64,000 nucleotides of DNA from Clostridia bacterium (GCA_029256705.1 JAQSXK010000010.1:10317-74316), one strand, 5' to 3'; positions 16,878 through 38,783 are shown, numbered from the stretch's first letter. The notes: generated by a model not told the origin, from the letters alone. Translations and numbers: made by a program.

Positions 16878-17954
16878 ATGAAAAAAATTGCAATAATGAC
16901 AGCAGGTGGAGATTGTCCTGGATTAAATAGCGTAATAAAAACTGTAGTTCTTTCTGCTAGAAAAAAAGGTATAACAGTTGTTGGTATTTTAGATGGATAT
17001 ATAGGTTTCGTAGAAAACAGATATATGGTACTGACTGAAAAAATAGTAGATAATATAGATACAATGGGTGGCACGATACTTGGTTCTTCAAACAAAGAGA
17101 ATCCTTTTCATTATCCAAATAAAGAAGGTATTGCTAAATTTGAAGATAGAGTCGATGATAGTATAGAAGCATTAAGAAAATTAGATGTTGAAGGATTAAT
17201 AGTAGTAGGAGGAGATGGGTCTTTGGACTCAGCTAGAGTTATTTATGAAAGAGGAATGCCTACAATAGGAATTCCTAAAACTATAGATAATGACATGAGT
17301 GCTAGCAATCCTACAATAGGATTTGAAACAGCTGTACAAAATGCTGTAGACTGCATTTCTAAACTAAAAACAACTGCATATTCACATAAAAGAGTTATGG
17401 TAGTTGAACTTATGGGTAGAACGTCAGGATATTTAACTTTATATGCTGGCTTTGCAGCATGTTCAGATATTATACTGCTTCCTGAAAAAGACTATAATTT
17501 AAATGGTGTTATAAATGAAGTAAAACGTGTAATGTCTAATGGTAAAAGATATTGTATTATAGCAATGTCTGAAGCTGCAAAAGAAAATGGTAAAGAAGAA
17601 ACAATTGCTAGAGTTGTAAAAGATAGTTATGAAGCAAAAAGGTATGGTGGAGTATCTGCTAAACTCGCAAAGGATATAGAAGATGCAACAGGATATGAAG
17701 CTAGATCAATAATACTTGGATATTTACAAAGAGGTGGATCACCTTTTGCAACGGATATGATACTTGGTGCTAGACTTGGGGATTATGCCTTGAATTTATT
17801 AATTAATAATGAACTTGGATATATAGTTGGATCTGAAGATGGAAAATTAATAAAAACTAAATATCCTAAAACAAGAGTAGCAAGACTTTTAGACTTTGAT
17901 AATAATGATTTAATTAAAACAGCTAAAAGTATGGGAATATACTTTGGTGAATAA
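16878..17954 (+). CDS. pfkA: 6-phosphofructokinase
   Basis: It carries the TAGGDCPGLN, GGDGS, PKTIDND and MGR motifs. Confidence 0.88.
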   Translation: MKKIAIMTAGGDCPGLNSVIKTVVLSARKKGITVVGILDGYIGFVENRYMVLTEKIVDNIDTMGGTILGSSNKENPFHYPNKEGIAKFEDRVDDSIEALRKLDVEGLIVVGGDGSLDSARVIYERGMPTIGIPKTIDNDMSASNPTIGFETAVQNAVDCISKLKTTAYSHKRVMVVELMGRTSGYLTLYAGFAACSDIILLPEKDYNLNGVINEVKRVMSNGKRYCIIAMSEAAKENGKEETIARVVKDSYEAKRYGGVSAKLAKDIEDATGYEARSIILGYLQRGGSPFATDMILGARLGDYALNLLINNELGYIVGSEDGKLIKTKYPKTRVARLLDFDNNDLIKTAKSMGIYFGE

Positions 17955-17967: not shown

Positions 17968-18000
17968 AAAAACATCTGAATGAATTTCAGATGTTTTTTT
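17968..18000 (+). terminator. intrinsic terminator after pfkA
   Basis: A perfect 13-bp stem (aaaaacatctgaa / ttcagatgttttt) with a T7 tail. Confidence 0.85.
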
Positions 18001-18080: not shown

Positions 18081-18109
18081 TTGACAAAAAGTTATATTTA
18101 ATATATAAT
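18081..18109 (+). promoter_or_regulatory. consensus sigma-A promoter of the first giant paralog
   Basis: TTGACA (18081-18086), a 17-nt spacer, then TATAAT (18104-18109). Confidence 0.7.
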
Positions 18110-18149
18110 TTTAAATAAAAAACTATTTTTAAAATAGGGGGAAACTTTG

Positions 18150-21100
18150 ATGAAAAATACAAGAAGGGGTATATCTTTAATTGTACTCGTAATAACAATA
18201 ATTATAATTGCAATTCTTGCAGGTGGTGTTATTTTAACACTATCTACAAATAATCCAATAAATAGTGCTAATGAAGCAGCATTTAAGTCGGATTTAGATG
18301 CTATAGCTTCAGATTTAAATATGTATCAAACGAGTCAATATGCTAAAGCTAAAACATATAGTCCAAATAAACTAGATGCGAATGACTTATCTGCCGAATA
18401 TGATGGTGTAGTTATTGAGGGTAAAACAATTAAAGATATAATACCTATCTTATCTAAAACAGATAAATATAACGGTCAATTTGAAATTACAGATGGTAAA
18501 TTAGTATACTTAGGTACCAATAGAACACAAAAAAGATGGGCACAAGATGTTAATGTAGAGGTTATAGATGCGGATAGATTAGATGCAATAATTTCTACAG
18601 CAACAGCTTTGCCAATATCTGCTGGAACCGAGGTTGTAGCCATTATTAAAATTTCATCTAACGCTAGTATAAATAATATAAATATAACTAATAATTTAGA
18701 ATTATTAGATCATAATAATTTACCTTTAACAATTCAACCGGTATTTGAAATTGGTGTACCAAGTGGTACTGATTTAGATGCATTAAGAACTGTAGAAGTA
18801 ACAATAAAAACAGATGGACTTGCAGAGGGCATATATAAATTGAAACTCAAATCATATAGTATATCTAATATATATGATGTAACAAATTCAAAAGATATAG
18901 TATCAAGTAATTTATTTGAAATAGATAATACACCACCAACAAATCCAGAAATGTCAGCTACTCCAACAGCATGGACTAATTCAGATGTGACTGTGTCCAT
19001 AACATATCCACCAGATAGTGTAACGAAAGAATATAGTTTGGATGGAACATCATGGGATGTATATACAAATTCAATAACTGTTAGTACAAATAATGAAACA
19101 ATATATGCAAGAGCAATAGATATAGCTGGAAATCAAAGTGGACAAAGCACAATAACTGTTGCAAATATAGATAGAGAATTACCAACAGTTACCTTTGGGA
19201 CAAACGGAGGAAATAATCTACAAGTTGCTAGTACTAAAGTAATATTAACTGATATAGGTGTAAGTGGATTAGATGTAGTTTCATTTAAGTATATATGGGA
19301 CACACAAAATGTAGATGAACCAACAGGTCAGTGGAATACATTCGTAAATGATGAAGTAATAAATAAAGTAGATTCTAATGGCACATACTATTTATGGATA
19401 AAGGCATTAGATAATGCTGGAAATAGTCTAATAACTAAATCTAATGTATTTACTGTAGATAATATAGTTCCAGAAAATCCAACAATGTCAGCAAATCCAA
19501 CAACATGGACAAATGGAAATGTAACAGTAACAATTACATATTCAGATGATACAGCAATAAAAGAATATAGCACAAATGGAACAACATGGAGTGCATATAC
19601 AGCACCAGTTGTGGTTAGTACAAATAATACAACAGTATATGCAAGAGCTAGTGATGCTAGTGGAAATCAAAGTGGACAAAGTACAATAACTATTGCAAAT
19701 ATAGATAAAGTAATACCAACAGTAGCATATGCAACAAATGGAGGAACAAATTTACAAACAGCAAGTACAGTTGTTACAGCAAATGATTTAGGTGGAAGTA
19801 ATATAGCTTCATTAGAATATATATGGGATACACAAAATGCTACAACTCCATCATCTGGATGGACAGCATTTACAACTGGTAGTACAATAACAAAATCATC
19901 AATTAACGGAACATATTATCTATGGATAAGAGTAATAGATAATGCAGAAAATAATTTTGTAACTAAATCTAATGCTTTTGTAGCAGATAATACACCACCA
20001 GTAAATCCAACAATGTCGGCATCGCCAACAGGATTTACAAATGGAAATGTAACAGTAACAATTATATATCCATCTGATGCAGCAATAAAAGAATATAGTA
20101 CAAATGGAACAGCATGGAGTGCATATACAGTACCAGTTGTAGTAACTACAAATAATACAACAATTTATGCAAGAGGATCAGATGTAATTGGAAACCAAAG
20201 TGGACAAAGCACGATAACAATTGCGAATATAGATAAGGAAATACCTGTTATATCCGAAACTTTTAGTGGTGGTGCAATATATGATGATCCTACATTTTCA
20301 AACGGATATAATAATACTAATATATATAATAATTTAGGAAATGGATTAGTAACTAATACTAGGACTGTTATAAGTGATTCACCAGTAGGTTCACAATATG
20401 GCTTAGTTATAAAATCGACTGGTGCAGTAGTTCCAGGATATGGTGGATTTTATTTTGCAACTCAAACTGTAGCGAATAAGGTTTTTGTTACTAAAATAAT
20501 AGCTAAAATACCTGTAGGATATAATATAAATTGGGCATCAAATGCTATAGGTACTGAAGGTGCAGCAACTTATTGGTTAACATCACAGGCGGGTACTGGA
20601 AATTGGCAAGAATATATTTTTGAGGTAAGATGTGGATCAACGGGACCATTTTCAACAACAAATTTCTATTATTTAACTGGTGAAACAGCACCTACAGTAT
20701 CTTCACCTTTAGTGTGGACAGTCGCATATGCTAATGTATTTGATAAGGACAAATGGTCTACGTCAGATAGTGTTATGTTTAATTCAACAGATAATAAAGG
20801 AATAGTTGCTTATGGTATAAATCAAAGTTCTACTATTCAACCTACATTTACAAATTGCAGTTCTACTACAAACATAACTAAATTAATTGATAATATAACT
20901 GTTAATGGAACATATTATGTTTGGGTAAAAGATCAAGCTGGAAATGTTGTAAATAAAGCAATAACAATAAGTAATGTTGACACATTGGCACCACAAATAT
21001 CGACTGATGTAAGAAGTGTTTTAAATACAACATTTTCAAATTGGACTTTAAGTGGTGGAGCATATATAGATGGAAGTGGTCAACTGGTATTACCAAATAC

Positions 21101-21674
21101 AGGTTCTAGAGCAGATTCTCCATATTTACAAGTAGATGGAAATCCTTGGATACATGAATTGGATGCTACTACAAGTCAAAGTTCACCTTATTTTACTCCT
21201 GCTGGTGGCGTGCTTATTGGTAGTTCATACTTTGACTCATCGTACAATACTGCAGTATCAAATAATACATACAGTGGTAATGGCTATGCAGAAAAGATAT
21301 TAATAAATGGAACCGCGCATGCGAGATGGGATGGATGGTCTGGATATGGTCCTAACGTAAAATATGTAAAAGTTTTAGTTACTGTGGATGCATATTATTC
21401 TAATGCACCAGTGACTTGCTATAATGTGATATTTACAAGTTCAAATGTTACAAGTCCTAGTAAGAAAGTAATAGTTACAGTTACAGATGATATAAGTGGA
21501 ATAAAAACTAAAAAATGGCTTAGTGGTTCTAAAACCGTAAATGATTTTCAAAGTGCAGGAACAATATTTGATACTGAATTTACAGTAACTGTTAATGGAA
21601 CATACACAATATATACAGAGGATAATGCAGGAAATAAAACAGTAAGACAAGTAATTATTACACAAATAGGATAA
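18150..21674 (+). CDS. giant paralog P1: pilin-like N-terminal module, Ig-like A/B repeats, a jelly-roll-like module and a unique C-terminal domain (function unknown)
   Basis: This is a long uninterrupted ORF with a GGGGG SD 8 nt before the ATG at 18150. The N-terminus is MKNTRRG-ISLIVLVITIIIIAILAGGVILTL. There are three A units (WTN..VTV...YARA.D.AGNQSGQSTIT..NID) and two B units (TNGG.NLQ.AST...IWDTQN...GTYYLWIK..DNAGN). Confidence 0.88.
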   Translation: MKNTRRGISLIVLVITIIIIAILAGGVILTLSTNNPINSANEAAFKSDLDAIASDLNMYQTSQYAKAKTYSPNKLDANDLSAEYDGVVIEGKTIKDIIPILSKTDKYNGQFEITDGKLVYLGTNRTQKRWAQDVNVEVIDADRLDAIISTATALPISAGTEVVAIIKISSNASINNINITNNLELLDHNNLPLTIQPVFEIGVPSGTDLDALRTVEVTIKTDGLAEGIYKLKLKSYSISNIYDVTNSKDIVSSNLFEIDNTPPTNPEMSATPTAWTNSDVTVSITYPPDSVTKEYSLDGTSWDVYTNSITVSTNNETIYARAIDIAGNQSGQSTITVANIDRELPTVTFGTNGGNNLQVASTKVILTDIGVSGLDVVSFKYIWDTQNVDEPTGQWNTFVNDEVINKVDSNGTYYLWIKALDNAGNSLITKSNVFTVDNIVPENPTMSANPTTWTNGNVTVTITYSDDTAIKEYSTNGTTWSAYTAPVVVSTNNTTVYARASDASGNQSGQSTITIANIDKVIPTVAYATNGGTNLQTASTVVTANDLGGSNIASLEYIWDTQNATTPSSGWTAFTTGSTITKSSINGTYYLWIRVIDNAENNFVTKSNAFVADNTPPVNPTMSASPTGFTNGNVTVTIIYPSDAAIKEYSTNGTAWSAYTVPVVVTTNNTTIYARGSDVIGNQSGQSTITIANIDKEIPVISETFSGGAIYDDPTFSNGYNNTNIYNNLGNGLVTNTRTVISDSPVGSQYGLVIKSTGAVVPGYGGFYFATQTVANKVFVTKIIAKIPVGYNINWASNAIGTEGAATYWLTSQAGTGNWQEYIFEVRCGSTGPFSTTNFYYLTGETAPTVSSPLVWTVAYANVFDKDKWSTSDSVMFNSTDNKGIVAYGINQSSTIQPTFTNCSSTTNITKLIDNITVNGTYYVWVKDQAGNVVNKAITISNVDTLAPQISTDVRSVLNTTFSNWTLSGGAYIDGSGQLVLPNTGSRADSPYLQVDGNPWIHELDATTSQSSPYFTPAGGVLIGSSYFDSSYNTAVSNNTYSGNGYAEKILINGTAHARWDGWSGYGPNVKYVKVLVTVDAYYSNAPVTCYNVIFTSSNVTSPSKKVIVTVTDDISGIKTKKWLSGSKTVNDFQSAGTIFDTEFTVTVNGTYTIYTEDNAGNKTVRQVIITQIG

Positions 21675-21767
21675 ATAATTTTAATTTGTGAAATAAAAAT
21701 TGTTTAATTGAAAAATATATATTGTGATATTAATTCAAATTTACTAAAAATATAGGAGGAAAATTGC

Positions 21768-24700
21768 ATGATAAACAAAAGAGAAGGGATATCTTTAATT
21801 GTACTTGTTATAACAATAATAATTGTTATTATACTTGCAGGAGGTGTCATTTTGACACTTTCTGCAAACAACCCAATAAGCAGCGCAAATGAAGCTGTAT
21901 TTAAGTCAGACTTAGATGCAATAGCTTCGGATTTAAATATGTATCAGAGTAGTCAATATTCTAAAGTTAAAGCATATAGTCCAGATAGACTAAATGCAAA
22001 TGATTTAACCGCAGAATATGATGGAACAGTTATTGAAAATAAAACAATAAAAGATATAATACCAGTTTTATCTAAAACAGATAAATACAATGGACAGTTT
22101 GAGATTATAAATGGTAAATTAGTATATTTAGGTACAAATAGAACGCAAAAAAGATGGGCCCAAGATGTTAATGTAGAAGTTATAGATGCAGATAGATTAG
22201 ATGCAATAATTTCTACAGCAACAACTTTGCCAATATCTGCGGGAACTGATGTTGTAGCAACAATAAAAATTTCATCTAATGCTAGTATAAATAATATAAA
22301 ATTGACTAACAATTTAGAATTGTTAGATAACAATAATATAGCAGTTGCAACTCAACCAGTATTTGAAATTGGCACACCAACTGGTACAGAGTTGGATACA
22401 TTAAGAACTGTAGAGGTAACAATAAAAACAGATGAACTTGCAGAGGGTATATATAAATTGAAACTTAAATCATATAGTATATCTAATATATATGATGTAA
22501 CAAATTCAAAGGATATAGTAGCAGGAGAATTATTTGAAATCGATAATACACCACCAGCAAATCCAGAAATGTCAGTCACTTCGACAGGATGGACTAATTC
22601 AGATGTGATTGTATCAGTAACATATCCATCAGATAGTGTAAAGAAAGAATACAGTTTAGATGGAACTACTTGGAACACATATACAGATTCAATAACAGTT
22701 AATACAAATAATACGACAATATATTCAAGAGCAATAGATATAGCTGGAAACCAAAGTGGGCAAAGTACAATGACTATTGTAAATATAGATAAAGAATCAC
22801 CAATTTCTTTATTTGGTACAAATGGAGGAAATAATCTACAAGTTGCTAGTACTAAAGTAACATTAACTGATGTAGGAGTAAGTGGATTAGATATAACCTC
22901 ATTAAAGTATATATGGGATGCACAAAATGTAGATGAACCAACAGGTGAGTGGACTACATTTGTAAACAATGAAATTATAAGTAAAGCAGATTCAAATGGA
23001 ACATATTACTTGTGGATAAAAGCTTTAGACAATGCAGGAAATAGCATAATAACAAAATCTAATGCATTTGTTGTAGATAATATAGTTCCAGAAAATCCAA
23101 CATTGACAGCAATACCAACAGCCTGGACAAATACAAATGTAACTGTAACAATAACATACCCTTCAGATGCTTTTGTTAAAGAATATAGCATAGACGGTAT
23201 AACTTGGAATGCATACACAGAGGTAGTATTAATAACTACAAATAATACAACAATTTATACAAGAGCAACAGATGCAAGTGGAAATCAAAGCGGACAGAGT
23301 ACATTAACTGTGGCAAATATAGATAAAATAATGCCAACAGCTACATATGTAACAAATGGAGGAATAGATTTACAAACAGCAAGTACAGTAGTAACAGCAA
23401 GTGATTTAGGTGGAAGTAATATAATATCATTAGAATATATTTGGGATACACAAAATAGTGTGACACCTATTAATGGTTGGACATCATTTACTAGTGGTAG
23501 TACGATTACAAAGTCTGGAATGACAGGAACATATTACTTATGGATAAAAGTAGTAGATAATGCAGGAAATATTCTAGTAACAAAATCTAATGCTTTTGTA
23601 GCAGATAATACACCACCAGCTAATCCAACAATATCAGCCTCACCAACAGCATGGACAAATGGAAATGTAACAGTAACAATAACATATCCAGCTGATGCAT
23701 CTGTAAAAGAATACAGTACAAATGGAACAACATGGAGTGTATATACAGCACCAGTCGTAATAATTACAAATAATACAACAGTTTATGCAAGAGCAGCAGA
23801 TATGAGCGGAAACCAAAGTGGGCAAAGTACAATAACTGTAGCAAATATAGATAAAATATTACCTACCGTAACATATGGTACAAACGGAGGAACAAATCTA
23901 AAAACAGCTAGCACAACAGTAATAGCTAATGATTTAGGTGGAAGTAATATTAGTTCATCAGAATATATTTGGGATACACAAAATAGTGTAACTCCTTCAT
24001 CTGGTTGGACAGTATTTACTAGTGGTAATACAATAACAAAATCTATGGTTACAGGATCATATTACTTATGGGTAAAAGTAGTAGATAATGCTGGTAACAA
24101 TTTTGTTACAAAATCTAATGTATTTGTATTAGATAATACGCCACCAATAAATCCAGCAATGTCAGCATCTCCTACAGGATGGACAAATGGAAATGTAACA
24201 ATAACAATCACATATCCAGTTGATATGTCTGTAAAAGAGTATAGTACAAATGGTACAACGTGGAGTGCATATACAGCGCCAGTTGTAGTAAGTACAAATA
24301 ATACAACAGTTTACGCAAGAGGTAGTGATGCGAGTGGAAATCAAAGTGGACAGAGTACAATAACTGTAACAAATATTGAAAGGATAGCCCCATCGGTACC
24401 TACAGTAAACTTTAATGGATATACTCCAGGTACATGGACTTCAGCAGCAATAACACTTAATTTATCTTCTACTGATGCTAACTCAGGAATAAATAAATAT
24501 CAATGGTCTAATAATGGAACAACATGGAATGATTTCCAAAGTTCTTGGATATACAATTATGATACAGCACAAACTCCTTGTTTTAGGTCAATAGATAATG
24601 CTGGTAATGTAAGTGCTGCAACTAGTTATTATAATATTTTAAGAGATGCAACTGCACCAACATATACAAGTTATAGTATAACTAATATTACAAGTGATAC

Positions 24701-25499
24701 TTATGATGTATTCGTATATGGTGTATCTGATGCAGGAAGTGGAGTAAATAGAGTACAATTTCCAAATTGGACTGCACTTAATGGTCAAGACGATATGGTA
24801 TCAAGTTTTGAAACAAATTCTACTATAACTGGACAAAACTTAGGTAGTGGAACTTGGAAATATACTGTAAAAAGATCTGATCATAATAATGAATATGGTG
24901 TTTATTTAACACATTTATATTTATATGATAATCTAGGAAATGTTGCAGGATTTGCATTAAACAATACAACTTTAGTTGATGCAAGTATAGTAGCAAAATT
25001 TACTTTAACTGCAGCACAAGAAATATTTAATGGTAGTACTTCATATTATACGGCTGGTGAAGTATCTAATAACTATACAATAGAATTTGATGCTCAGCCT
25101 TCAGATACAATAGATGTATTTTCAGAGAATAATACACTTATAGGTCATACAGGTTATAAACATAGATTTATTATTTTGGAATCACATGGAGGTGGAGTAC
25201 CTAATGCTGGCCTTGGTGTAGATTTAGGAACAAATGGTATAGTTTTGGTTGCACATAGTAACGGATATTATCATTCATTACTTACTTACTACTCTAACCT
25301 TAATGCATGGAATCATTATAAAATAGTAGTAGAAAATAAAATTCCAAGACTATATATAAATGGAGCACTTATTAAAACAGGTTATCCGCCACTATCTTCA
25401 TATACAAAATTGTATACATTATTTTCGATTGGAACAGGTGCATATGGTAATTATATAGGTAGAGCTAATAATTTTGTGTTTTATAATACTGTTAAATAA
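21768..25499 (+). CDS. giant paralog P2: pilin-like N-terminal module, 4 A and 3 B Ig-like units, a GBS Bsp-like repeat and a LamG-like C-terminal domain
   Basis: An AGGAGG SD precedes the start. The N-terminus is MINKREG-ISLIVLVITIIIVIILAGGVILTL. The Bsp-like motif is VQFPNWTALNGQDDMV...YLTHLYLYDNLGN. The C-terminal ~170 aa (…IPRLYINGALIKTG…) has the look of a concanavalin/LamG jelly roll. Confidence 0.88.
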   Translation: MINKREGISLIVLVITIIIVIILAGGVILTLSANNPISSANEAVFKSDLDAIASDLNMYQSSQYSKVKAYSPDRLNANDLTAEYDGTVIENKTIKDIIPVLSKTDKYNGQFEIINGKLVYLGTNRTQKRWAQDVNVEVIDADRLDAIISTATTLPISAGTDVVATIKISSNASINNIKLTNNLELLDNNNIAVATQPVFEIGTPTGTELDTLRTVEVTIKTDELAEGIYKLKLKSYSISNIYDVTNSKDIVAGELFEIDNTPPANPEMSVTSTGWTNSDVIVSVTYPSDSVKKEYSLDGTTWNTYTDSITVNTNNTTIYSRAIDIAGNQSGQSTMTIVNIDKESPISLFGTNGGNNLQVASTKVTLTDVGVSGLDITSLKYIWDAQNVDEPTGEWTTFVNNEIISKADSNGTYYLWIKALDNAGNSIITKSNAFVVDNIVPENPTLTAIPTAWTNTNVTVTITYPSDAFVKEYSIDGITWNAYTEVVLITTNNTTIYTRATDASGNQSGQSTLTVANIDKIMPTATYVTNGGIDLQTASTVVTASDLGGSNIISLEYIWDTQNSVTPINGWTSFTSGSTITKSGMTGTYYLWIKVVDNAGNILVTKSNAFVADNTPPANPTISASPTAWTNGNVTVTITYPADASVKEYSTNGTTWSVYTAPVVIITNNTTVYARAADMSGNQSGQSTITVANIDKILPTVTYGTNGGTNLKTASTTVIANDLGGSNISSSEYIWDTQNSVTPSSGWTVFTSGNTITKSMVTGSYYLWVKVVDNAGNNFVTKSNVFVLDNTPPINPAMSASPTGWTNGNVTITITYPVDMSVKEYSTNGTTWSAYTAPVVVSTNNTTVYARGSDASGNQSGQSTITVTNIERIAPSVPTVNFNGYTPGTWTSAAITLNLSSTDANSGINKYQWSNNGTTWNDFQSSWIYNYDTAQTPCFRSIDNAGNVSAATSYYNILRDATAPTYTSYSITNITSDTYDVFVYGVSDAGSGVNRVQFPNWTALNGQDDMVSSFETNSTITGQNLGSGTWKYTVKRSDHNNEYGVYLTHLYLYDNLGNVAGFALNNTTLVDASIVAKFTLTAAQEIFNGSTSYYTAGEVSNNYTIEFDAQPSDTIDVFSENNTLIGHTGYKHRFIILESHGGGVPNAGLGVDLGTNGIVLVAHSNGYYHSLLTYYSNLNAWNHYKIVVENKIPRLYINGALIKTGYPPLSSYTKLYTLFSIGTGAYGNYIGRANNFVFYNTVK

Positions 25500-25512
25500 T
25501 TTATATAAATAA

Positions 25513-25558
25513 AGAAAATAGTTGAAAAATTAAATAATTTAATTATCAACTATTTTCT
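25513..25558 (+). terminator. hairpin terminator after P2
   Basis: A perfect 13-bp stem (agaaaatagttga / tcaactattttct) with a 20-nt AT loop. Confidence 0.65.
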
Positions 25559-25589
25559 GTTAATTTTTAATATATAATTAAATAAACAC

Positions 25590-25618
25590 TTGATATTTCT
25601 TTTAATACATTATAAAAT
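25590..25618 (+). promoter_or_regulatory. candidate promoter of cassette 1 (156-aa gene plus P3); a duplicate lies at 30007-30035
   Basis: TTGATA, a 17-nt spacer, then TAAAAT. The same arrangement recurs in the duplicated upstream region. Confidence 0.5.
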
Positions 25619-25666
25619 ATAAACATGTAAAATGAATACATAAATAAATTTATAGGAGGATTTAAA

Positions 25667-26137
25667 ATGAATAATAAAGGTCAAAATCAGATTAGGTTAG
25701 TAATTTTAGGGGTTGTTCTTGTTATTGCAATAATAGTTGTTATTGTAGCTATTAATAAAAACAACGCAAATTCAGTGAATGATGGAAATAAAACGGATAA
25801 TACAAAAGTAAATTATACAGAAACAAATGATGGGACTAAGGTAAATACAAGCGAAGAAGTATCTCAAGATAAAAGCGTTAAAGGTGTATTATTAGAACAA
25901 AGTAAAATAGTATATACTAATGGAACATCTAAGTTAACATCAAAAGTAACAAATGATAGTATAGCAAAAGATAATTTAAGATTTAAAGTAAAATTTATAG
26001 CAAATGATGGAACTGTAATGGCAGAAGCTGTAGGATATGTAGGAAAAATAAAAGCGAATGAAACAAAATATATTGATTCATACATAACAATAGATACTTC
26101 TAATTCGAAAAATGTTACTTACGAAATAATGGAATAA
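25667..26137 (+). CDS. membrane-anchored small beta-sandwich protein (156 aa), copy 1
   Basis: An AGGAGG SD precedes the start. There is an N-terminal TM segment (LVILGVVLVIAIIVVIVAI), a low-complexity N/T/D linker and a ~90-aa beta-rich domain that resembles FxLYD/DUF4352-type domains. Confidence 0.75.
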   Translation: MNNKGQNQIRLVILGVVLVIAIIVVIVAINKNNANSVNDGNKTDNTKVNYTETNDGTKVNTSEEVSQDKSVKGVLLEQSKIVYTNGTSKLTSKVTNDSIAKDNLRFKVKFIANDGTVMAEAVGYVGKIKANETKYIDSYITIDTSNSKNVTYEIME

Positions 26138-26176
26138 TATTAAATTAGAAAGTAATAAATATTAAGAGGTGAAGTT

Positions 26177-29100
26177 GTGAATTATAAATATAACAAAATA
26201 GGTATTTCATTAATTGTATTAGTGATAACAATTATAGTAATAATAATACTTGCAGGAGCTGTTATTTTGACACTATCTGCAAATAATCCAATAAATAGTG
26301 CAAATGAGGCGGTATTTAAGTCAGATTTAGATGCAATTGAATCGGACTTGAGTTTGTACGTATCTAGTGAGTATGCAAATACTACTATGTTTAGTCCAGA
26401 TAATTTAAATGCAGATGATTTATCTGTAGAATATAATGGTACTGTTATTGTTGGCAAAACAATAAAAGATATAATACCTGCATTATCTACTACAAATAAA
26501 TATAATGGGCAATTCGAAGTGGTAAACGGAAAGTTAGTTTATGTAGGAACAGATAGAACAAAAAAAAGATGGGCTCAAGATGTTAATGTAGAAGTTATAG
26601 ATGCAGATAGATTAGATGCAATAATTTCTACAGCAACAACTTTACCAATATCTGCTGGAACAGATGTTGTGGCTACAATAAAAATTTCATCTAACGCTAG
26701 TATAAATAATATAAATTTAACGAGTAAACTAGAGTTATTAGATAAAAATAATGTGTTAGTTCCAGTTCAACCATTATTTGAAATTGGCACACCAACTGGG
26801 ACTGGCTTAGATACATTAAGAACTGTAGATGTAACAATAAAAACAGATACACTTACAGAAGGTATATATAAATTAAAATTGAAAGCGTATAGTATATCTA
26901 ATATATATGATGTGGTAATAGAAACTGATATAGTAACAAGTGAGTTATTTGAAATAGATAATACACCACCAACAAATCCAGAAATGTCAGTTACTCCAAC
27001 TGGATGGACTAATTTAGAGGTATTTGTGTCAATTACATACCCATCAGATAGTGTAGTAAAAGAATATAGTTTAGATGGAATAATATGGAATGTATATACA
27101 AATTCAATAACAGTTAATACAAACAGTACAACAATATATGCAAGATCAACAGATATAGCTGGAAACCAAAGTGGACAAAGTACAATAACTATTGCGAATA
27201 TAGATAGAGAATCACCAACAGTTGTATATGGAACTAATGGTGGAGATGATCTACAAGTGGCAAGTACTACAGTAATAGTAACTGATGTAGGGGTAAGCGG
27301 AGTAGATATGACATCATTGAATTATATTTGGGATACACAAAATACTGTAGAACCTGCTAATGGTTGGATAGTATTTGAAAATGGAAATAATATAACTAAA
27401 TCTGGAATTACAGGTACATATTATTTATGGATAAAGGCTACAGACAATACAGGGAATAGTGTAATAACTAAGTCTAATGCTTTTATAGCAGATAATACTG
27501 CTCCGGAAAATCCAGTTATGTCAGCTTCATATACAGGTTGGACAAACGGAAATGTAAATGTAACAATAACATATTCTTCTGATGCAGCATTAAAAGAATA
27601 TAGTACAGACGCTTCAACATGGAATACATACACAGCTCCAGTTGTAATAAGTACAAATAATACAACAGTATATGCAAGGGCAACAGATGCAAGCGGAAAC
27701 CAAAGTGATCAAAGTACAATGACTATAGCAAATATAGATAAAACATTACCAACAGTAACATTTAGCCCAAGTAATATCGCTATGACAAATAATGATGTTT
27801 CAATATCTGTAAGTGCAGTAGATGCTGGCGGAAGCAATATGAAAAAATGGAGATATAGATTAAGTAGTAATAATGGATCTACATATGGTGATTGGCAAGG
27901 TGTAAATACTGGATATAATCCAACTCAGACTTATACACTTGGTGCTGGTATAACAGTTCCAGTTCTTGTAGGTTTACCTATGAATTTAAAACAAAATCAA
28001 AAATATATGCTAGAATTTGATTATAGTTGCTTAAGCGGTACTAATATATTTAATGTAGATTTGTGGCCAGATGATTTACCAGAGGCACATATAAATGCTA
28101 CTACTGCTTTACAGCATTATATTTGGAATAATATAACTTCTAGTAGTATAAATATGAATACCGCAAATTTAAGAATTTTTAATGATATTATAAGACCAAA
28201 CCCAACAGATGTATATATAAATAATATTAATCTATATCCAAAAGAAACTCATAGTATATTATTAAATAGTACTGGTGATTGGAAAATACAAATAGAAGCA
28301 TATGACAATGCAAATAATAGTTCGATATTTACTTCAAATTTATTTAGTATAGATAAAATAGCACCAACAAATCCAACAATGGCAGCTTCACCTACAGGAT
28401 GGACAAATGGAAACGTAGCAGTTACAATAACATATCCAGGGGATTCTGTAATTAAACAATATAGTTTTGATACAATAACTTGGAATACATATACATCAAC
28501 TGTCACAGTATCTAATAATACAACAGTATATGCAAGAACTAGTGATGCTAGTGGAAACCAAAGTGGACAAAGTACACTAACAGTATCAAATATAGATAAA
28601 GTAGCGCCAACGGTAATAGCTACATATAAAAAAGCAGATACAACATCATACGTTTCAGATTCTTGGACTAATCAATCTGTAACTATTACAGCTGCAGGAA
28701 ATGATGGAAGTGGAAGTGGTGTAAATAGGTACCAAATTACATATGATGGATCAACATATTATGATTTACCAAACGGGACAGTTACACTAAGTACTACTGG
28801 AAGAACTGGGGTTTGGGTGAGAGCTATAGATAATGTAGAAAATATAGGGCCTAATTCATCAACATACTTGGTTGCAATAGATAAATTAGCCCCAACCGTT
28901 TCATATAGCACTAATGGAGCAACAAATGTGCAAGTAGCAAGTACTCAAATAACTGTAAATGATGCTGCTAGTTTAAGTGGATTAAATACATCTAGTTTAC
29001 AATATGTGTGGGATGTACAAAATGTAACTACTCCAACAGTTGGATGGGCAAATTTTACAAATGATTCTATTTTAACAAAATTAGGTGTAACTGGAATATA

Positions 29101-29887
29101 TTATTTATGGATTAAAGCGTCAGATAATGCAGGTAACATTGTTGTTTCAAAATCAAATTCATTTTCGATTGTTTCATATTATGCATTTAGTTATACTGGA
29201 AATTATCAAACTTGGACAGCACCTTCGACTGGTAAAATAAAAATTGAAACTTGGGGTGCTATGGGTGGAACACCTATGGGGGATAATTACTATTCGGGTA
29301 AAGGTGGATACGCGTCAGGTGAATTAAATGTTAATGCAGGAGATTTATTATATCTATATGTAGGTGCATATGGTATTAACGGTGGTTGGAACGGTGGCGG
29401 TAAAAATAGTTATCAAGGTGGAAATAACAATTTTACCGGTGGTGGAGCTTCAGATGTTAGAAAAAACGGTATGGCACTATCAAATAGAATAATAGTTGCA
29501 GGTGGCGGAGGAGCCAGCGGTGGATGGCAATCAAGAGGAGGAGATGGTGGAGGTCTGACTGGTAATAGTGGAACTTCAATATCAACTTATACAGGAAATA
29601 GATTTGGTACAGGTGGAACGCAAGCATCTGGTGGAACTGGAGGAACAAGTACTACTTATTCAAACGGTAATAACGGAATATTAGGAATAGGTGGAGATGC
29701 TTATGCTGCTTCTGGCGGCGGAGGCGGAGGCTATTATGGCGGCGGAGGCGGTACAGGAATCAATGCTGATGATGGTGGCGGCGGAGGCGGCTCATCATAT
29801 ATTGGAGGTGTTCTTAATGGAACAACTAGTATAGGTGCTAATACCGATTTTAATGGTAAAATTTCAATAACATATATAATACCATAA
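26177..29887 (+). CDS. giant paralog P3: pilin-like N-terminal module, Ig-like units and a glycine-rich C-terminal domain
   Basis: A GTG start follows aagaggtga. The N-terminus is VNYKYNKIG-ISLIVLVITIIVIIILAGAVILTL. The C-terminus reads YAFSYTGNYQTWTAPSTGKIKIETWGAMGG...GGGASDVRKNG.ALSNRIIVAGGGG... Confidence 0.88.
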   Translation: MNYKYNKIGISLIVLVITIIVIIILAGAVILTLSANNPINSANEAVFKSDLDAIESDLSLYVSSEYANTTMFSPDNLNADDLSVEYNGTVIVGKTIKDIIPALSTTNKYNGQFEVVNGKLVYVGTDRTKKRWAQDVNVEVIDADRLDAIISTATTLPISAGTDVVATIKISSNASINNINLTSKLELLDKNNVLVPVQPLFEIGTPTGTGLDTLRTVDVTIKTDTLTEGIYKLKLKAYSISNIYDVVIETDIVTSELFEIDNTPPTNPEMSVTPTGWTNLEVFVSITYPSDSVVKEYSLDGIIWNVYTNSITVNTNSTTIYARSTDIAGNQSGQSTITIANIDRESPTVVYGTNGGDDLQVASTTVIVTDVGVSGVDMTSLNYIWDTQNTVEPANGWIVFENGNNITKSGITGTYYLWIKATDNTGNSVITKSNAFIADNTAPENPVMSASYTGWTNGNVNVTITYSSDAALKEYSTDASTWNTYTAPVVISTNNTTVYARATDASGNQSDQSTMTIANIDKTLPTVTFSPSNIAMTNNDVSISVSAVDAGGSNMKKWRYRLSSNNGSTYGDWQGVNTGYNPTQTYTLGAGITVPVLVGLPMNLKQNQKYMLEFDYSCLSGTNIFNVDLWPDDLPEAHINATTALQHYIWNNITSSSINMNTANLRIFNDIIRPNPTDVYINNINLYPKETHSILLNSTGDWKIQIEAYDNANNSSIFTSNLFSIDKIAPTNPTMAASPTGWTNGNVAVTITYPGDSVIKQYSFDTITWNTYTSTVTVSNNTTVYARTSDASGNQSGQSTLTVSNIDKVAPTVIATYKKADTTSYVSDSWTNQSVTITAAGNDGSGSGVNRYQITYDGSTYYDLPNGTVTLSTTGRTGVWVRAIDNVENIGPNSSTYLVAIDKLAPTVSYSTNGATNVQVASTQITVNDAASLSGLNTSSLQYVWDVQNVTTPTVGWANFTNDSILTKLGVTGIYYLWIKASDNAGNIVVSKSNSFSIVSYYAFSYTGNYQTWTAPSTGKIKIETWGAMGGTPMGDNYYSGKGGYASGELNVNAGDLLYLYVGAYGINGGWNGGGKNSYQGGNNNFTGGGASDVRKNGMALSNRIIVAGGGGASGGWQSRGGDGGGLTGNSGTSISTYTGNRFGTGGTQASGGTGGTSTTYSNGNNGILGIGGDAYAASGGGGGGYYGGGGGTGINADDGGGGGGSSYIGGVLNGTTSIGANTDFNGKISITYIIP

Positions 29888-29904
29888 TTATTAAGCGATT
29901 TTAT

Positions 29905-29943
29905 AGTAGAAAAAATTATATTTAATAATATATTTTTTCTACT
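29905..29943 (+). terminator. hairpin after P3
   Basis: A perfect 12-bp stem (agtagaaaaaat / attttttctact). The downstream T tail is weak. Confidence 0.45.
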
Positions 29944-30084
29944 TAGTTATATGTTTAAGTTTCTATATTATTTTTTAATATATTTAGCACTAAATTGAAT
30001 AAACACTTGATATTTTTTTTAATACATTGTAAAATATAAACGTGTAAAATGAATACATAAATAAATTTATAGGAGGATTTAAAA

Positions 30085-30555
30085 ATGAGTAATAAAGGTC
30101 AAAATCAAATGAGGTTAGTAATTTTAGGAGTTGTTCTTGTTATTGCAATAATAGTTGTTATTGTAGCTATTAATAAAAACAATGCAAATTCAGTGAATGA
30201 AGGAAATAAAACAGATAATACAAAAGTAAATTACACAGAAACAAATGATGGAACTAAGGTAAATACAAGTGAAGAAGTATCTCAAGATAAAAATGTTAAA
30301 GGTGTGCTATTAGAACAAAGTAAAATAGTATATACAAATGGAACATCTAAGTTAACATCTAAGGTAACAAACGATAGTACAGCAAAAGATAATTTAAGAT
30401 TTAAAGTAAAATTTATAGCAAATGATGGAACTGTAATGGCAGAAGCTGTAGGATATGTAGGAAAAATAAAAGCAAATGAAACAAAATATATTGATTCATA
30501 CATAACAATAGATACTTCTAATTCAAAAAATGTTACTTATGAAATAATGGAGTAG
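30085..30555 (+). CDS. membrane-anchored small beta-sandwich protein (156 aa), copy 2
   Basis: It differs from copy 1 at 5 of 156 residues (N2S, I9M, D39E, S69N, I98T). The SD and upstream leader are the same. Confidence 0.75.
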   Translation: MSNKGQNQMRLVILGVVLVIAIIVVIVAINKNNANSVNEGNKTDNTKVNYTETNDGTKVNTSEEVSQDKNVKGVLLEQSKIVYTNGTSKLTSKVTNDSTAKDNLRFKVKFIANDGTVMAEAVGYVGKIKANETKYIDSYITIDTSNSKNVTYEIME

Positions 30556-30586
30556 TCAATCAAAATGAACTTTAAGAGGTGAAGTT

Positions 30587-33500
30587 GTGAATTACAAATA
30601 TAATAAAATAGGTATATCATTAATAGTATTGGTTATAACAATAATAGTTATTGTTATTCTTGCAGGTGCTGTTATTTTAACATTATCTGCAAATAATCCA
30701 ATAAATAGTGCGAATGAGTCGGTATTTAAGTCAGATTTAGATGCAATTGAATCGGACTTAAGTTTGTATGTAGCTAGTGAGTATGCAAATACTACTTCGT
30801 TTAGTCCAGATAGTCTAAATGCAGACGATTTATCTGTAGATTATAATGGTAATGTTATTGTAGGTAAAACAATAAAAGATATAATACCTGCATTATCTAC
30901 TACAAATAAATATAATGGGCAATTTGAAGTGGTAAACGGAAAATTAGTTTATGTAGGAACAGATAGAACAAAAAAAAGATGGGCACAGGAAACTAATGTG
31001 GATGTTATAGATGCAGATAGATTAGATGCAATAATTTCTACAACAACAACTTTGCCAATATCTGCAGGAACAGATGTTGTAACTACAATAAAAATTTCAT
31101 CTAATGCTAGTATAAATAATATAAATTTAACAAGTAAACTAGAGTTATTAGATAAAAATAATGTATCAGTTACAGTTCAACCATTATTTGAAATTGGCAG
31201 TCCAACTGGAACTGGGTTAGATACATTAAGAACTGTAGAAGTGACAATAAAAACAGATGGGCTCGCAGAAGGTATATATAAATTAAAATTGAAACCATAT
31301 AGCATATCTAATATATATGATGTAACAAACTCAATAGATATAATTAGTAGTGAATTATTTGAAATAGATAATACGCCACCAACAAATCCAGAAATGTCAT
31401 CTACTCCAACAGGATGGACAGATTTAGATGTTTCAATATCCATAACATATCCATTAGATAGTGTAACAAAAGAATATAGTTTAGATGGTACATCATGGAA
31501 TGTATATACAAATCCAATAACAGTTAATACAAATAATACAACAATATATGCAAGAGCGATAGATATAGCTGGAAATCAAAGTGGACAAAGTACAATAACT
31601 ATTGCAAATATAGATAGAGAATCACCAACAGTTATATTCGGTACAAATGGGGGAAATAATCTACAAGTTGCTAGTACTAAAGTAACAGTAACTGATGTAG
31701 GTGTAAGTAATGTAGATATAACTTCATTAAAGTATATATGGGATACACAAAATGTAGATGAACCAACAGGTCAGTGGAATACATTTGTAAATGGTGAAGT
31801 AATAAATAAAGTAGATTCTAATGGCACATATTATTTATGGATAAAAGCATTAGATAATACAGGAAATAGTGTAACAACTAAATCTAACGCATTTGCTGTA
31901 GATAATATAATTCCTGTAAATCCAACAATGTCAGCAAGTCCTACAGGATGGACAAATGGAAATGTAACAGTAACAATTACATATTCAGCTGATGCAGTTG
32001 TTAAAGAATATAGTACAGATACTTTAACATGGAGTGCATATATAGCACCAGTTGTGATTAGTACAAATAATACAACAGTATATGCAAGAGCTAGTGATGC
32101 TAGTGGAAATCAAAGTGAGCAAAGTACTATGACTGTAGCAAATATAGATAAAGTAATACCAGTAATAACTGCTGAAAATGATGGCTCAACAACATCAAGT
32201 ATAACAGTCAAAGCAACTGCGTCGGATTTAGGTGGAAGTGCACTTAATAACGGTTCATACCAATATTCAAAGGATAATGGTGTTACATGGACGGCACTTA
32301 CTAATGTAACAAGTTATACATTTAGTTCACTAACAACAGGAGCATATCAATGTAAAGTAAAGGTATTGGATAACGCAGGTAACAGTGCTATATCTAATAC
32401 ATTAGGAATATCAACAGTAGCTGTTGGAACGATAACAATGTCAGCAAGTCCAACAACTTGGACAAATGGCAATGTAACTGTAACTATAGCATATCCAGCA
32501 GAAGTTGTAACAAAACAATATAGTTTGAATGGTACAACATGGTCTACATATACATCAGCAGTAATAGTTACAACAAATGGAACATTATATGCTAGGGGAT
32601 ATGATGCAGGAAATAATCAAACAACGCAGGCAACAATAACAATAGCTAATATAGATAAAACGTTACCAGTAGTTTCAAACTCTGTAAGTGGAGGTATGAT
32701 ATTTACAGATCAAAAGTTTCAAAATGGAATAAATAATACTTATGTATATAATAATCTTGGTAATGGTACAGTAACTAATACACGTATTGCAATGGCAGAT
32801 TCACCTACAGGTTCTGGATATGGATTGGAAGTAAGAACAACAGGAACACCATCTCCAGGATGGGGAGGATTCTATTTTGCAAATATGGCATCTGCAAATA
32901 AGGTGTTTATTACGAAAATTATAGCAAGTATACCAGTAGGATATACAATAAATTGGGCTTCAAATGCATTTGGTGATGGTGGTACAATCACATGGTTAAC
33001 ATCTCAAGATGGAACAGGAACTTGGCAAGAATATGTATGTAAAGTTACTTGTGGTCCAACAGGAGCATTTAGTTCAACTAACTTTTATTACTTAACTGGA
33101 GGAGCAACACCAACATCATCCAATCCTTTAGTTTGGAGAGTTGCATACGCAACAGTATTTGATACAACATTATGGAAAACAACAAGTAATGCTATAGTGA
33201 GTGCAACAGATACATCTGGAATAGTAGGATATGGAATAAACCAAAGTAGTGTAACTGCACCTACATTTACAAATATAAGTGCAAGAGTAAACTTTGCAAC
33301 AGTATTTGAAAATATTACTGTAAATGGAACATACTACGTATGGCTAAAAGATCAAGCTGGTAATGTAACAAATACTTCAATTTTAGTAAATTATATTGAT
33401 AATATTGTACCAACTGTAACATATGGAACAAATGGTGGTACAGTAGTAACAGCAAGTACAACTGTTACAATAAATGATACAGGTGGAAGTAATTTAAATA

Positions 33501-34525
33501 CAAGTACATTACAATATGTATGGGATATACAAAATGTAACAACACCAGTATCAGGATGGAATACATTTACCAATGGAACAACAATAACTAATTCTGGTAC
33601 AGGAACTTATTATTTGTGGATAAAAGGATCAGATAATGCAGGAAACAATGTAATTACAAAATCTAATGCTTTTGTAACAGTACCTTCAGTAAACCAGACA
33701 TTTGGTTATAATGGAAGTTATCAAACATGGACAGTACCTTATACTGGAACATATAAACTTGAAGTTTGGGGAGCACAAGGCGGAAACAATTGGAATATTG
33801 TTGGTGGTCTAGGTGCATATAGTAGTGGAAATATAAATTTAACTGCTGGAACTATTCTTTATGTATATGTTGGTGGCCAAAATGGTTATAATGGTGGAGG
33901 AACTGCTGGAACAGGAAGTGCTTGTGAAAATGGTGCAAACGGTGGTGGAGCAACTGACATAAGACTTTCTGGAACGGCTCTTGCTAATAGAATCATAGTA
34001 GCTGGCGGCGGAGGCGGTGCTAGTGGAGGTGGCTCAGGACATTACCAAAATGCTACAGGATATAATGGTGCTTATGGTGGTGGCGGAAGTGGAATTGGTA
34101 TAGGAGCACCTGCTTTATATCACGGTGCCGGAGGATCTGCAGGAGGAACAGGTGCAGGAAATGGAGGATCTGCTTCAGGTGGAGATATAACTAGTATGTC
34201 AACATATGCAAAAGGATACAACGGAGGAAATGGATCACTAGGTCAAGGTGGATCTGGTGGAGGAGTATATGGAGATAGATTAGATTACTATGGCCCAGGC
34301 TCTGGCGGCGGAGGCGGAGGCGGCTACTACGGTGGTGGTGGCGGCGGCGGCGGTGCCGGCTGGTGGGGTTCTAACGGTGGTGCTGGTGGTGGCGGTTCTT
34401 GCTATATTGGTGGTGTAACATCAGGTCAAACAATAGCTGGAAATGCTACAATGCCAGGTACAGCTGGTGGTTCAATAGTTGGAAATAGTGGTAATGGTTA
34501 TGTTAAAATAACTAATGCACCATAA
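30587..34525 (+). CDS. giant paralog P4: pilin-like N-terminal module, Ig-like units, a jelly-roll-like module shared with P1 and an expanded glycine-rich C-terminal domain
   Basis: The GTG start and SD match those of P3. The N-terminal ~500 aa are closely similar to P3. The internal block NSVSGGMIFTDQKF...VWRVAYATVFD parallels P1 ETFSGGAIYDDPTF...VWTVAYANVFD. The C-terminal domain contains G7 and G8 runs. Confidence 0.88.
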   Translation: MNYKYNKIGISLIVLVITIIVIVILAGAVILTLSANNPINSANESVFKSDLDAIESDLSLYVASEYANTTSFSPDSLNADDLSVDYNGNVIVGKTIKDIIPALSTTNKYNGQFEVVNGKLVYVGTDRTKKRWAQETNVDVIDADRLDAIISTTTTLPISAGTDVVTTIKISSNASINNINLTSKLELLDKNNVSVTVQPLFEIGSPTGTGLDTLRTVEVTIKTDGLAEGIYKLKLKPYSISNIYDVTNSIDIISSELFEIDNTPPTNPEMSSTPTGWTDLDVSISITYPLDSVTKEYSLDGTSWNVYTNPITVNTNNTTIYARAIDIAGNQSGQSTITIANIDRESPTVIFGTNGGNNLQVASTKVTVTDVGVSNVDITSLKYIWDTQNVDEPTGQWNTFVNGEVINKVDSNGTYYLWIKALDNTGNSVTTKSNAFAVDNIIPVNPTMSASPTGWTNGNVTVTITYSADAVVKEYSTDTLTWSAYIAPVVISTNNTTVYARASDASGNQSEQSTMTVANIDKVIPVITAENDGSTTSSITVKATASDLGGSALNNGSYQYSKDNGVTWTALTNVTSYTFSSLTTGAYQCKVKVLDNAGNSAISNTLGISTVAVGTITMSASPTTWTNGNVTVTIAYPAEVVTKQYSLNGTTWSTYTSAVIVTTNGTLYARGYDAGNNQTTQATITIANIDKTLPVVSNSVSGGMIFTDQKFQNGINNTYVYNNLGNGTVTNTRIAMADSPTGSGYGLEVRTTGTPSPGWGGFYFANMASANKVFITKIIASIPVGYTINWASNAFGDGGTITWLTSQDGTGTWQEYVCKVTCGPTGAFSSTNFYYLTGGATPTSSNPLVWRVAYATVFDTTLWKTTSNAIVSATDTSGIVGYGINQSSVTAPTFTNISARVNFATVFENITVNGTYYVWLKDQAGNVTNTSILVNYIDNIVPTVTYGTNGGTVVTASTTVTINDTGGSNLNTSTLQYVWDIQNVTTPVSGWNTFTNGTTITNSGTGTYYLWIKGSDNAGNNVITKSNAFVTVPSVNQTFGYNGSYQTWTVPYTGTYKLEVWGAQGGNNWNIVGGLGAYSSGNINLTAGTILYVYVGGQNGYNGGGTAGTGSACENGANGGGATDIRLSGTALANRIIVAGGGGGASGGGSGHYQNATGYNGAYGGGGSGIGIGAPALYHGAGGSAGGTGAGNGGSASGGDITSMSTYAKGYNGGNGSLGQGGSGGGVYGDRLDYYGPGSGGGGGGGYYGGGGGGGGAGWWGSNGGAGGGGSCYIGGVTSGQTIAGNATMPGTAGGSIVGNSGNGYVKITNAP

Positions 34526-34573: not shown

Positions 34574-34690
34574 AAATAAAATAATAAATACTTTTTATTT
34601 TATTTAATGTTGACAAACCAAAATTATACTGTTATAATAATAACTGCGTTTTAAAAAGAGATTCCATAAATAATTATTTAGGAGGTTGTC

Positions 34691-38406: not shown

Positions 38407-38421
38407 TAGGAGGTATAATAA

Positions 38422-38775: not shown

Positions 38776-38783
38776 GTAATTTT

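Follow-up and report, generated by a model that had tools for sequence, protein, structure and literature searches.

What kind of protein is encoded by a block of four giant, tandem paralogous genes that begin alike and end in different domains? The block belongs to a Clostridia bacterium (GCA_029256705.1, JAQSXK010000010.1:10317-74316) and was analysed within a stretch of 64,000 nucleotides (nt) of low G+C content (about 25-34%), called here the window, to which unprefixed positions refer. Six co-oriented open reading frames (ORFs) lie on the + strand at 18147-34525: the four giants P1 (18147-21674, 1175 amino acids, aa), P2 (21768-25499, 1243 aa), P3 (26177-29887, 1236 aa) and P4 (30587-34525, 1312 aa), and two genes of 156 aa, S1 (25667-26137) and S2 (30085-30555), placed 39 nt upstream of P3 and 31 nt upstream of P4, respectively. 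The ORFs and their lengths are exactly those given by a first-pass annotation made from the sequence. A fifth member of the family, of 830 aa, is encoded on the same strand outside the four-gene block (41703-44195). The answer proposed here, favoured on a modest balance of probability, is that these five proteins are modular type IV pilin-like surface adhesins, composed of a pilin module, a stalk and a swappable tip.

The front end carries most of the argument. The N-terminus consists of a basic leader, a glycine and then ISLIVLVITIIIIAILAGG; the near-invariant segment is ISLIVLVITIIVIIILAG, also written ISLIVLVITIIIIAILAGGVIL. Among about 250 members of the family the leader (for instance MMKNTRRG, MINKREG or MNYKYNKIG) has a median length of 7 residues, position -1 is Gly in 238 and Ala in 10, and the residues that follow conform to a motif with Ile at +1, Ser at +2, Leu at +3, Ile at +4, Val at +5 and Thr at +9. 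The hydrophobic segment alpha1N, near-invariant and predicted to be helical, starts directly behind the putative cleavage site. Apart from the missing glutamate at position 5 (Glu5), the front end is organised like a class III (prepilin) signal. All 17 relatives recovered by a word-indexed search keep SLIVLVIT unchanged, and the near-invariance of alpha1N, together with Gly(-1) and the short leader, amounts to a conservation far above that of a generic membrane anchor. The fifth member starts in the same way (MEYLSGRKG/ISLISLVIIIV..., the slash marking the putative cleavage site) and matches the hidden Markov model (HMM) of the head with an E-value of 1.4e-34. Ala instead of Gly at -1 (...KKA/ISLIV...) is found in the loci L049, L055, L057, L059 and L067 of the metagenome-assembled genome (MAG) RGIG7442, and likewise in the loci L069, L071 and L077 of SRP313737; the operon pilin probably belonging to RGIG7442 (L086, described below) retains Gly. 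Ala at this position may affect the efficiency of processing.

When a profile of the head was compared with all sequences of the PDB, the top matches were type IV pilins, namely Geobacter PilA-N (E 8.5e-4), Thermus PilA, GspG and PilE1. These alignments are in register, Gly(-1) to Gly(-1), and proceed into alpha1C, to about residue 60. The sole match of P1-P4 to a pilin family is a weak one to TIGR01710 (GspG, E 0.029). An AlphaFold 2 (AF2) model of the head, built from a 17-sequence alignment (pLDDT 84.5), has helices at residues 7-34 and 37-67, that is, a predicted helix of ~60 residues kinked at Asn-Asn-Pro, and then four short strands. The head was modelled alone, given that in a model including the next domain (BETA) the Foldseek output was dominated by immunoglobulin (Ig)-like matches to BETA. 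In a Foldseek search of the PDB with the head model, PilW of C. difficile ranks first and the gonococcal pilin PilE tenth.

Further evidence comes from type IV pilus operons of related uncultured Clostridia. Three independent ones were found, in an ENA metagenome (L008), an NCBI MAG (L062) and a further ENA record (L086). Each operon encodes PilM/N-like and PilO-like proteins, small pilins and PilB (T2SSE with an MshEN domain); PilC is encoded in the operons of L008 and L086 (the locus of L062 stops just past PilB), and a PilT-family ATPase is present in the L086 operon. In all three, a short operon pilin (L086:8061-8381, L062:16325-16735 and L008:10001-10753; lengths of 106, 136 or 250 aa) starts with MKKG/ISLIVLVIT and has Val at +5. 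Two of these pilins, from L062 and L008, were scored against the head HMM and match it with E-values of about 1e-21, over HMM positions 3-86 and 3-109, and the match thus extends well past the membrane segment. Moreover, the large proteins track, over their first ~40 residues, the operon pilin of their own genome, genome by genome. The helix signature is 'IIVLAILA...SNTNIIEQA' in RGIG7442 and L086, 'IIVMII...AIILSLS' in the L062 MAG and 'IIIIIILAGAVILNL' in the L008 group; contig JAFYUV010000017.1 of RGIG7442 carries three head-family loci. Such co-variation is expected if the subunits share a machine or a filament core, although it could also result from concerted evolution alone. The first-pass annotation had compared the block with modular pilins, one anchoring or delivery module bearing interchangeable payloads, and this comparison is sustained by the pilin-like front, by the N-terminus shared with the operon pilins and by a payload that differs between strains (see below). 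As a separate observation, the short operon pilins are candidates for the major pilin of a PilB/PilT/PilC system that lacks Glu5, which would be unusual for a bacterial type IV pilus.

A number of results weigh against the pilin-like reading. At position +5, 222 of 248 members have Val and the others Thr, Ile or Ser; none has Glu, a hallmark of assembling pilins. The N-methyl motif models PF07963 and TIGR02532 (IPR012902) have no match in P1-P4 at E<=0.1 or in 74 relatives at E<=1e-4. The profile match to PDB pilins is marginal (best E 8.5e-4) and lies partly within the hydrophobic segment. The modelling of head and BETA for which the first-pass annotation had called does return a helix followed by four strands with pilins in first rank, but the Foldseek matches to pilins are not significant (E 0.55-7.8, TM-score 0.34-0.38; for PilW 0.55 and ~0.37). 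In the operons, the gene called 'PilD' (L062:16964-17755, L008:10790-11743 and L086:8540-9394) encodes only the A24_N domain (zinc-finger/methyltransferase), fused to a pilin-like segment, without Peptidase_A24. Pilus genes flank one of 75 genome loci, the large genes being scattered among housekeeping genes, and none were found within the window of this genome. Finally, it is difficult to see how dozens of paralogs in a genome, with lengths of up to 1540 aa, could all be subunits of one pilus.

The pilin-like segment of 'PilD' does have Glu5 (G/VFNVELLV, G/AISVEVLV), and a stand-alone Peptidase_A24 gene (L066:6838-7587, 249 aa, PF01478 E 1e-12), with a GFGDVK motif and no A24_N, is found in another MAG, where a head-family gene lies 2.4 kb downstream of it. 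Taken together, the A24_N-only 'PilD' and the stand-alone A24 protein indicate that the lineage apparently has a leader peptidase in split form. A scan of metagenomes for contigs with PilB gave only two short contigs. In a different context (L003:3453-10801), the gene for a weak family member, P0017 (406 aa, AVSLIVLVIT), follows at a distance of a few kb a Tad-like set made up of a CbiA/TadZ-like protein, two membrane proteins and a T2SSE ATPase of CpaF type, adjoined by TraC-like and TraG conjugation-type genes; a link of P0017 to Tad-type machinery is possible. A Tad-like pilus cluster with CpaB, TadZ, CpaF and a TadBC fusion has been described in the uncultured order TANB77, where the Tad-type pilin was linked to the response to immunotherapy (PMC11680825). 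That cluster was considered as a counterpart of the operons found here and set aside, its gene set being different; the pilin is also a different one and provides loose context only.

The alternative that survives best, while still rather unlikely, is that the giants are plain stalk adhesins of a bacterium that relies little on sortases, held in its membrane by an uncleaved signal anchor (type II membrane proteins) and never polymerised, their likeness to pilins being a matter of descent or concerted evolution. It would accommodate the missing Glu5 and N-methyl signature, the insignificant fold match, the very numerous paralogs and the scatter of their genes among housekeeping genes, and a long Ig-like stalk would suit the crossing of a Gram-positive wall. 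It does not readily explain, on the other hand, that ~19 residues of the membrane segment, Gly(-1) and the basic 7-residue leader are nearly invariant across hundreds of divergent proteins, that the same segment is found on the pilin of three pilus operons and co-varies with it per genome, or that a conserved head of ~100 aa follows the helix. Far less probable is that the giants are secreted, soluble or loosely wall-bound binders whose Sec signal peptide is cut by signal peptidase I, e.g. near ..NSA/NEA... In fact, while the basic N-region, the hydrophobic core and the small residues (SANEA) loosely resemble a long Gram-positive signal peptide, the hydrophobic run of ~26 residues is almost invariant, unlike the h-regions of signal peptides, the predicted helix runs on without a break into an amphipathic segment, which is conserved, and a folded head, and the region behind the putative cut site is itself conserved.

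Behind the pilin-like front, the giants are built from modules, delimited by iterated HMMs made from segments of P1 and by comparison with Pfam and NCBIfam. Every pair of giants aligns over ~1000 aa (BLASTP E = 0), with an identity of 62-93% from HEAD through BETA to the third repeat unit and of 19-39% in the last 200 aa. The fronts are only 77-87% identical as DNA, indicating that the copies are old and not recent duplicates. The common front foreseen by the first-pass annotation, a conserved head of about 110 aa and a beta-rich domain of about 120 aa, is there, with the size of BETA (~122 aa) nearly as predicted and a head that is longer, ~140 aa. BETA of P1 is predicted by AF2 (pLDDT ~90-96) to be an Ig-like sandwich, with Foldseek matches to Ig V-set and nanobody-like structures at E ~1e-3. 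A stalk of 5-10 OmpL47-type and Ig-like units follows, and the alternation of ~80-aa and ~95-aa units noticed at first sight was found again: the A unit (~80 aa), present 3-6 times in each protein, is of OmpL47 type (NCBIfam NF047446, E 1e-22 to 1e-45), and the B unit (~95 aa) is Ig-like without a family assignment.

The four giants differ in how these modules are combined. P1 reads HEAD, BETA, A-B-A-B-A, X, B', Z, B'. Its HEAD (18147-18566, aa 1-140) has the leader MMKNTRRG and Val at +5 of alpha1N; BETA (18567-18932, aa 141-262) has no Pfam family; the stalk (18933-20237) matches NF047446 in 4 stretches (E 3.8e-28). Towards its end are located the X module (20217-20780, ~190 aa, aa 691-878), common to P4, and the Z module (21027-21446, ~140 aa, aa 961-1100), found in P1 only, neither of a known family. 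P2 consists of HEAD (21768-22184), BETA (22185-22550), a repeat stalk (22551-24632) arranged as A-B-A-B-A-B-A-A', a GBS Bsp-like repeat (24663-24962, E 2.6e-12) and a LamG/ConA-like lectin domain (24963-25496; Laminin_G_3 E 9e-6, just under the Pfam cutoff). In P3, HEAD (26177-26599) and BETA (26600-26965) are followed by a stalk with a unique insert (26966-29176; A-B-A, insert, A-A'-B) and by an ALK/LTK-type glycine-rich domain (29207-29884, ALK_LTK_GRD E 8.6e-26). P4 comprises HEAD (30587-31009), BETA (31010-31375), repeats (31376-32659; A-B-A-B'-A), the X module (32639-33199, aa 685-871), further Ig-like units (33164-33691; B'-B) and a glycine-rich domain (33722-34522, ALK_LTK_GRD E 1.6e-10). 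In the fifth member the pilin-like HEAD is combined with an RCC1 beta-propeller of ~14 repeats (E 9e-255). All these modules are on the + strand.

These assignments agree with the Bsp-like, LamG-like and glycine-rich payloads proposed earlier for P2, P3 and P4. The C-terminus of P1, taken earlier for one unknown domain of ~230 aa, resolves instead into the two modules X and Z. The presence of X in both P1 and P4 indicates that modules are shuffled as a mosaic and not distributed as one payload per gene. Pfam at E<=5 gave nothing for X, Z, the P3 insert, BETA or the S proteins, and a search of PDB sequences gave nothing useful for X, Z or S. As regards anchoring at the other end, none of P1-P4 has a C-terminal LPXTG with a transmembrane segment and a basic tail; their sole hydrophobic segment is N-terminal, and an LPNTG found once inside P1 (aa 982) has no transmembrane segment or tail behind it. 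SLH, cell-wall-binding and choline-binding repeats have no Pfam or NCBIfam match at E<=0.1 in P1-P4. The first reading of the sequence, which saw none of these anchors, is thus borne out by the two databases and by inspection of the C-termini.

The small proteins S1 and S2 are 97% identical and bitopic: each has a single transmembrane helix at its N-terminus and a conserved domain rich in beta structure. Homologues of S are encoded 15-40 nt upstream of head genes in the loci L005, L009, L010, L053 and L075; the downstream partner is a HEAD-BETA-A gene in four of the five, that of L075 being a gene without detectable BETA. The payloads of the S-linked genes vary (FGE-sulfatase-like, RCC1, glycine-rich), and the genes upstream of S1 and S2 end differently, in LamG (P2) and in a glycine-rich domain (P3). 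Since S adjoins HEAD-BETA genes whatever their payload, it is better seen as a partner of the front end than of the payload, and a role in assembly or anchoring may be guessed. The comparison with polymorphic toxins, also made in the first-pass annotation, fares badly: a contact-dependent competition locus, with the C-termini as effectors and the 156-aa genes as immunity genes, is suggested by tandem genes with conserved fronts, variable ends and small genes in between, but it is highly improbable, as the payloads are lectin, Ig, leucine-rich repeat (LRR), propeller and glycine-rich domains with no toxin domain in the proteins of the window or in 74 relatives, the near-identical S1 and S2 sit upstream of their own partner and do not track the payload of the preceding gene as immunity genes would, and no type VI secretion (T6SS), type VII secretion (T7SS) or contact-dependent inhibition (CDI) genes were found near the block.

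The family to which the giants belong is large. An initial impression of rarity, based on the 17 relatives given by the word-indexed search with the first 264 aa, was discarded as a product of the index itself: when 1.84 billion representative proteins were searched exhaustively with a profile, thousands were found, with 16,353 matches at E<=1e-3, 2,507 clusters at E<=1e-10 and 159 at E<=1e-30. Lengths range from 145 to 1236 aa among the best 150 matches listed. A scan of one genome per GTDB species returned 406 relatives, the best 80 of which are all from MAGs of uncultured Clostridia or Bacillota, including some from human (Hadza) gut and buffalo colon. The mapping of spread and payloads recommended at the outset has therefore yielded thousands of clusters, uncultured Clostridia and Bacillota among the best relatives, and a broad range of payloads. 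In 84 loci and the window, 129 head-bearing ORFs of 118-1540 aa were counted, often in tandem arrays of up to five, and one MAG has at least 39 distinct head-family genes. In 74 relatives the payloads are BspA-type LRR, Bsp-like, Ig-like, glycine-rich, RCC1, LamG, F5/8-C, FGE-sulfatase-like and Glug domains; judged by their domain families, the recognisable payloads are predicted to be binding or adhesion modules. A phage or plasmid origin of the head was considered and rejected, tblastn with the head having given no match among 50,697 records of phages and 72,556 of plasmids. In L001 (8762-12402) and L002, a tandem pair of head-family genes (391 and 387 aa, with an FGE-sulfatase-like payload) comes directly behind two small genes with a Spo0A_C domain.

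The closest genome, the MAG OH_SBrB_108 (JAEWPS01; locus L009), shows how such a locus can change. Across the region its DNA is 92-96% identical to that of the window, and where the window (18147-34525) holds four giants and two S genes, L009:10004-18736 holds two giants and one S gene. The P4 orthologue is 96% identical. The P1 orthologue is 83% identical over 960 aa and ends in an Ig-like unit and a glycine-rich domain in place of Z, with a likely frameshift at its extreme end. Payload replacement and a change in copy number have thus occurred on a short evolutionary scale.

As to expression, a Shine-Dalgarno sequence, good or strong, is found in front of each of the six ORFs. The earliest start codon of P1 is a TTG (18147), while the ATG at 18150 is the likelier start. 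A perfect match to the sigma-70 consensus, TTGACA-17-TATAAT, is located on the + strand at 18081-18109, 38 nt upstream of P1; from the consensus match alone, this element is likely the promoter of P1 and perhaps also of P2. TTGATA-17-TAAAAT sites, likewise consensus matches only, are present upstream of S1 and of S2. The arrangement of these promoter-like elements at P1, S1 and S2 suggests three transcription units, P1(-P2), S1-P3 and S2-P4. Upstream of the block are located der and pfk (16878-17954), the latter followed on its 3' side by a hairpin (17968-17998). Downstream, a gene for a class A penicillin-binding protein (PBP; 34691-36487) is followed by lexA and the ars operon; a second perfect TTGACA-17-TATAAT with a TG extension (34610-34638), just upstream of the PBP gene, points to the latter as a separate transcription unit and hence to the downstream edge of the block.

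The arsR-arsD-arsA arsenic resistance operon (38095-40532) and the genes for an ArsR-type regulator and a heavy-metal P-type ATPase (11382-13916), which flank the block, are ordinary and have no relation to the giants. A further giant ORF of at least 1190 aa runs on the + strand from ~60425 past the end of the window (64000); its N-terminus, MKKRIGVIFFTLIVCSLLITLL, is an ordinary signal-like front without the GISLIVLVIT head, and the ORF probably encodes a large surface protein of a second kind. An Rfam scan of the window gave a tRNA and nothing else. No transposase or phage genes were found in the 64 kb, as already stated by the first-pass annotation, and no pilus-machinery genes.

If the giants and the fifth member are pilin-like adhesins, the following mechanism can be envisaged. 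The N-terminal helix would insert the protein into the membrane, and a prepilin peptidase would cut the leader after Gly(-1). The pilin module would then be either built into the type IV pilus of the lineage or kept in the membrane as an anchor. In a pilus the tip would be the likely position, given that pilins without Glu5 cap filaments and that a bulky cargo fits there; in the membrane, the stalk would carry the binding domain through and past the cell wall. The stalk, formed by BETA and the repeat units, would be rigid and, from the typical size of Ig domains, tens of nm long. The tip would be variable and ligand-binding, with a LamG lectin and a Bsp-like repeat, an ALK-type glycine-rich domain, X or Z, or an RCC1 propeller. 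Strains would come to differ in payloads and in copy number through recombination at the repeats of the stalk, and a variable repertoire of adhesins would result.

A bolder proposal, doubtful but conceivable, is that of an unrecognised display system based on a Glu5-less pilin module. One retractile PilB/PilT/PilC/PilMNO machine, with a split peptidase (a stand-alone A24 protein, and A24_N fused to a Glu5-bearing pilin), would process and display dozens of different giant adhesins per cell and replace sortase anchoring, by analogy with the archaeal bindosome. Its major pilin would polymerise without the salt bridge between Glu5 and the N-terminus, a bridge regarded as common to bacterial type IV filaments.

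Should these be true pilin modules, the signatures now in use for pilins would miss a very large branch, represented by thousands of clusters from metagenomes of the gut, the rumen and other anaerobic habitats, and the family would provide a natural test case for the assembly of bacterial type IV filaments without Glu5. The system would also bear on how abundant uncultured Clostridia, for which there are no isolates, attach to substrates, hosts and partner cells. Payload-swapping arrays would in that case be a main source of strain-level variation of the surface, with consequences for colonisation and immune recognition.

Among known systems, the resemblance to sortase-anchored LPXTG stalk adhesins (with Ig-like/Rib-type repeats, or Bsp-like) concerns the general plan, in which a repetitive stalk with a strain-variable number of repeats presents a binding domain. 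The polarity is reversed, however: P1-P4 have a pilin-like anchor at the N-terminus, the payload at the C-terminus and no sorting signal. For a situation in which many proteins share one pilin-type signal, the archaeal bindosome may be the closest functional analogy. Proteins of bindosome type are diverse, lack Glu5, are encoded by scattered genes and depend on one peptidase and one assembly system. The sugar-binding surface proteins of the Sulfolobus 'bindosome' reportedly share a pilin-type class III signal (Szabo et al., 2007, cited in PMC10191384). Here, by contrast, the lineage is bacterial and has a PilB/PilT/PilC/PilMNO operon, and the payloads are of adhesin type and not solute-binding proteins.

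Within bacterial type IV filaments, minor pilins without Glu5 (GspK / PilK / PilX class) are known as tip subunits (PMC10191384). P1-P4 are like them in lacking Glu5 and in being larger than major pilins, and for that class the tip is the expected position, where Glu5 is dispensable. They differ from it in that the short operon pilin, the candidate major subunit, also lacks Glu5, in having no similarity to the alpha-domain insertions of GspK type, and in belonging to a hugely expanded family instead of one with a single copy per system. PilW of C. difficile (PDB 7t31, 8dx4) is the top structural match of the head, although a weak one. In CofB-type pilins, such as CofB of enterotoxigenic Escherichia coli, beta-repeat and beta-sandwich domains are found behind the pilin module (PMC8179133). 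Unlike P1-P4, PilW and CofB have a canonical class III signal with Glu5 and are encoded in pilus operons.

The closest counterparts are the modular pilins described in 2021 (Raynaud et al., PMC8179133), a set of more than 1,200 proteins with 264 architectures defined by IPR012902. Examples are two proteins of Streptococcus sanguinis, in which PilB has a vWA module and PilC one of the ConA-like lectin type (PMC8179133; Shahin et al., 2023, PMC9934059). With modular pilins P1-P4 share an N-terminal pilin-like module predicted to act as a carrier, the grafting of binding domains foreign to pili and a predicted role in adhesion; the LamG/ConA-like payload of P2 belongs to the same superfamily as the module of S. 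sanguinis PilC. The differences are several. P1-P4 lack the IPR012902/N-methyl motif and have Val in place of Glu5; a stalk of 5-10 Ig-like domains separates pilin module and payload; at 1175-1312 aa, with relatives of up to 1540 aa, they exceed the survey maximum of 860 aa; and they come, as far as genome sequences tell, with dozens of paralogs per genome outside pilus operons and with the small membrane partner S. As the survey was defined by IPR012902 and the motif is absent here, proteins of the P1-P4 kind would be invisible to it. The first-pass annotation, which did not recognise a described system, is therefore right in one respect and wrong in another: modular pilins have been known since 2021, while a Glu5-less branch without the motif appears to be unrecorded, one that would count as modular pilins by architecture and fall outside them by signature.

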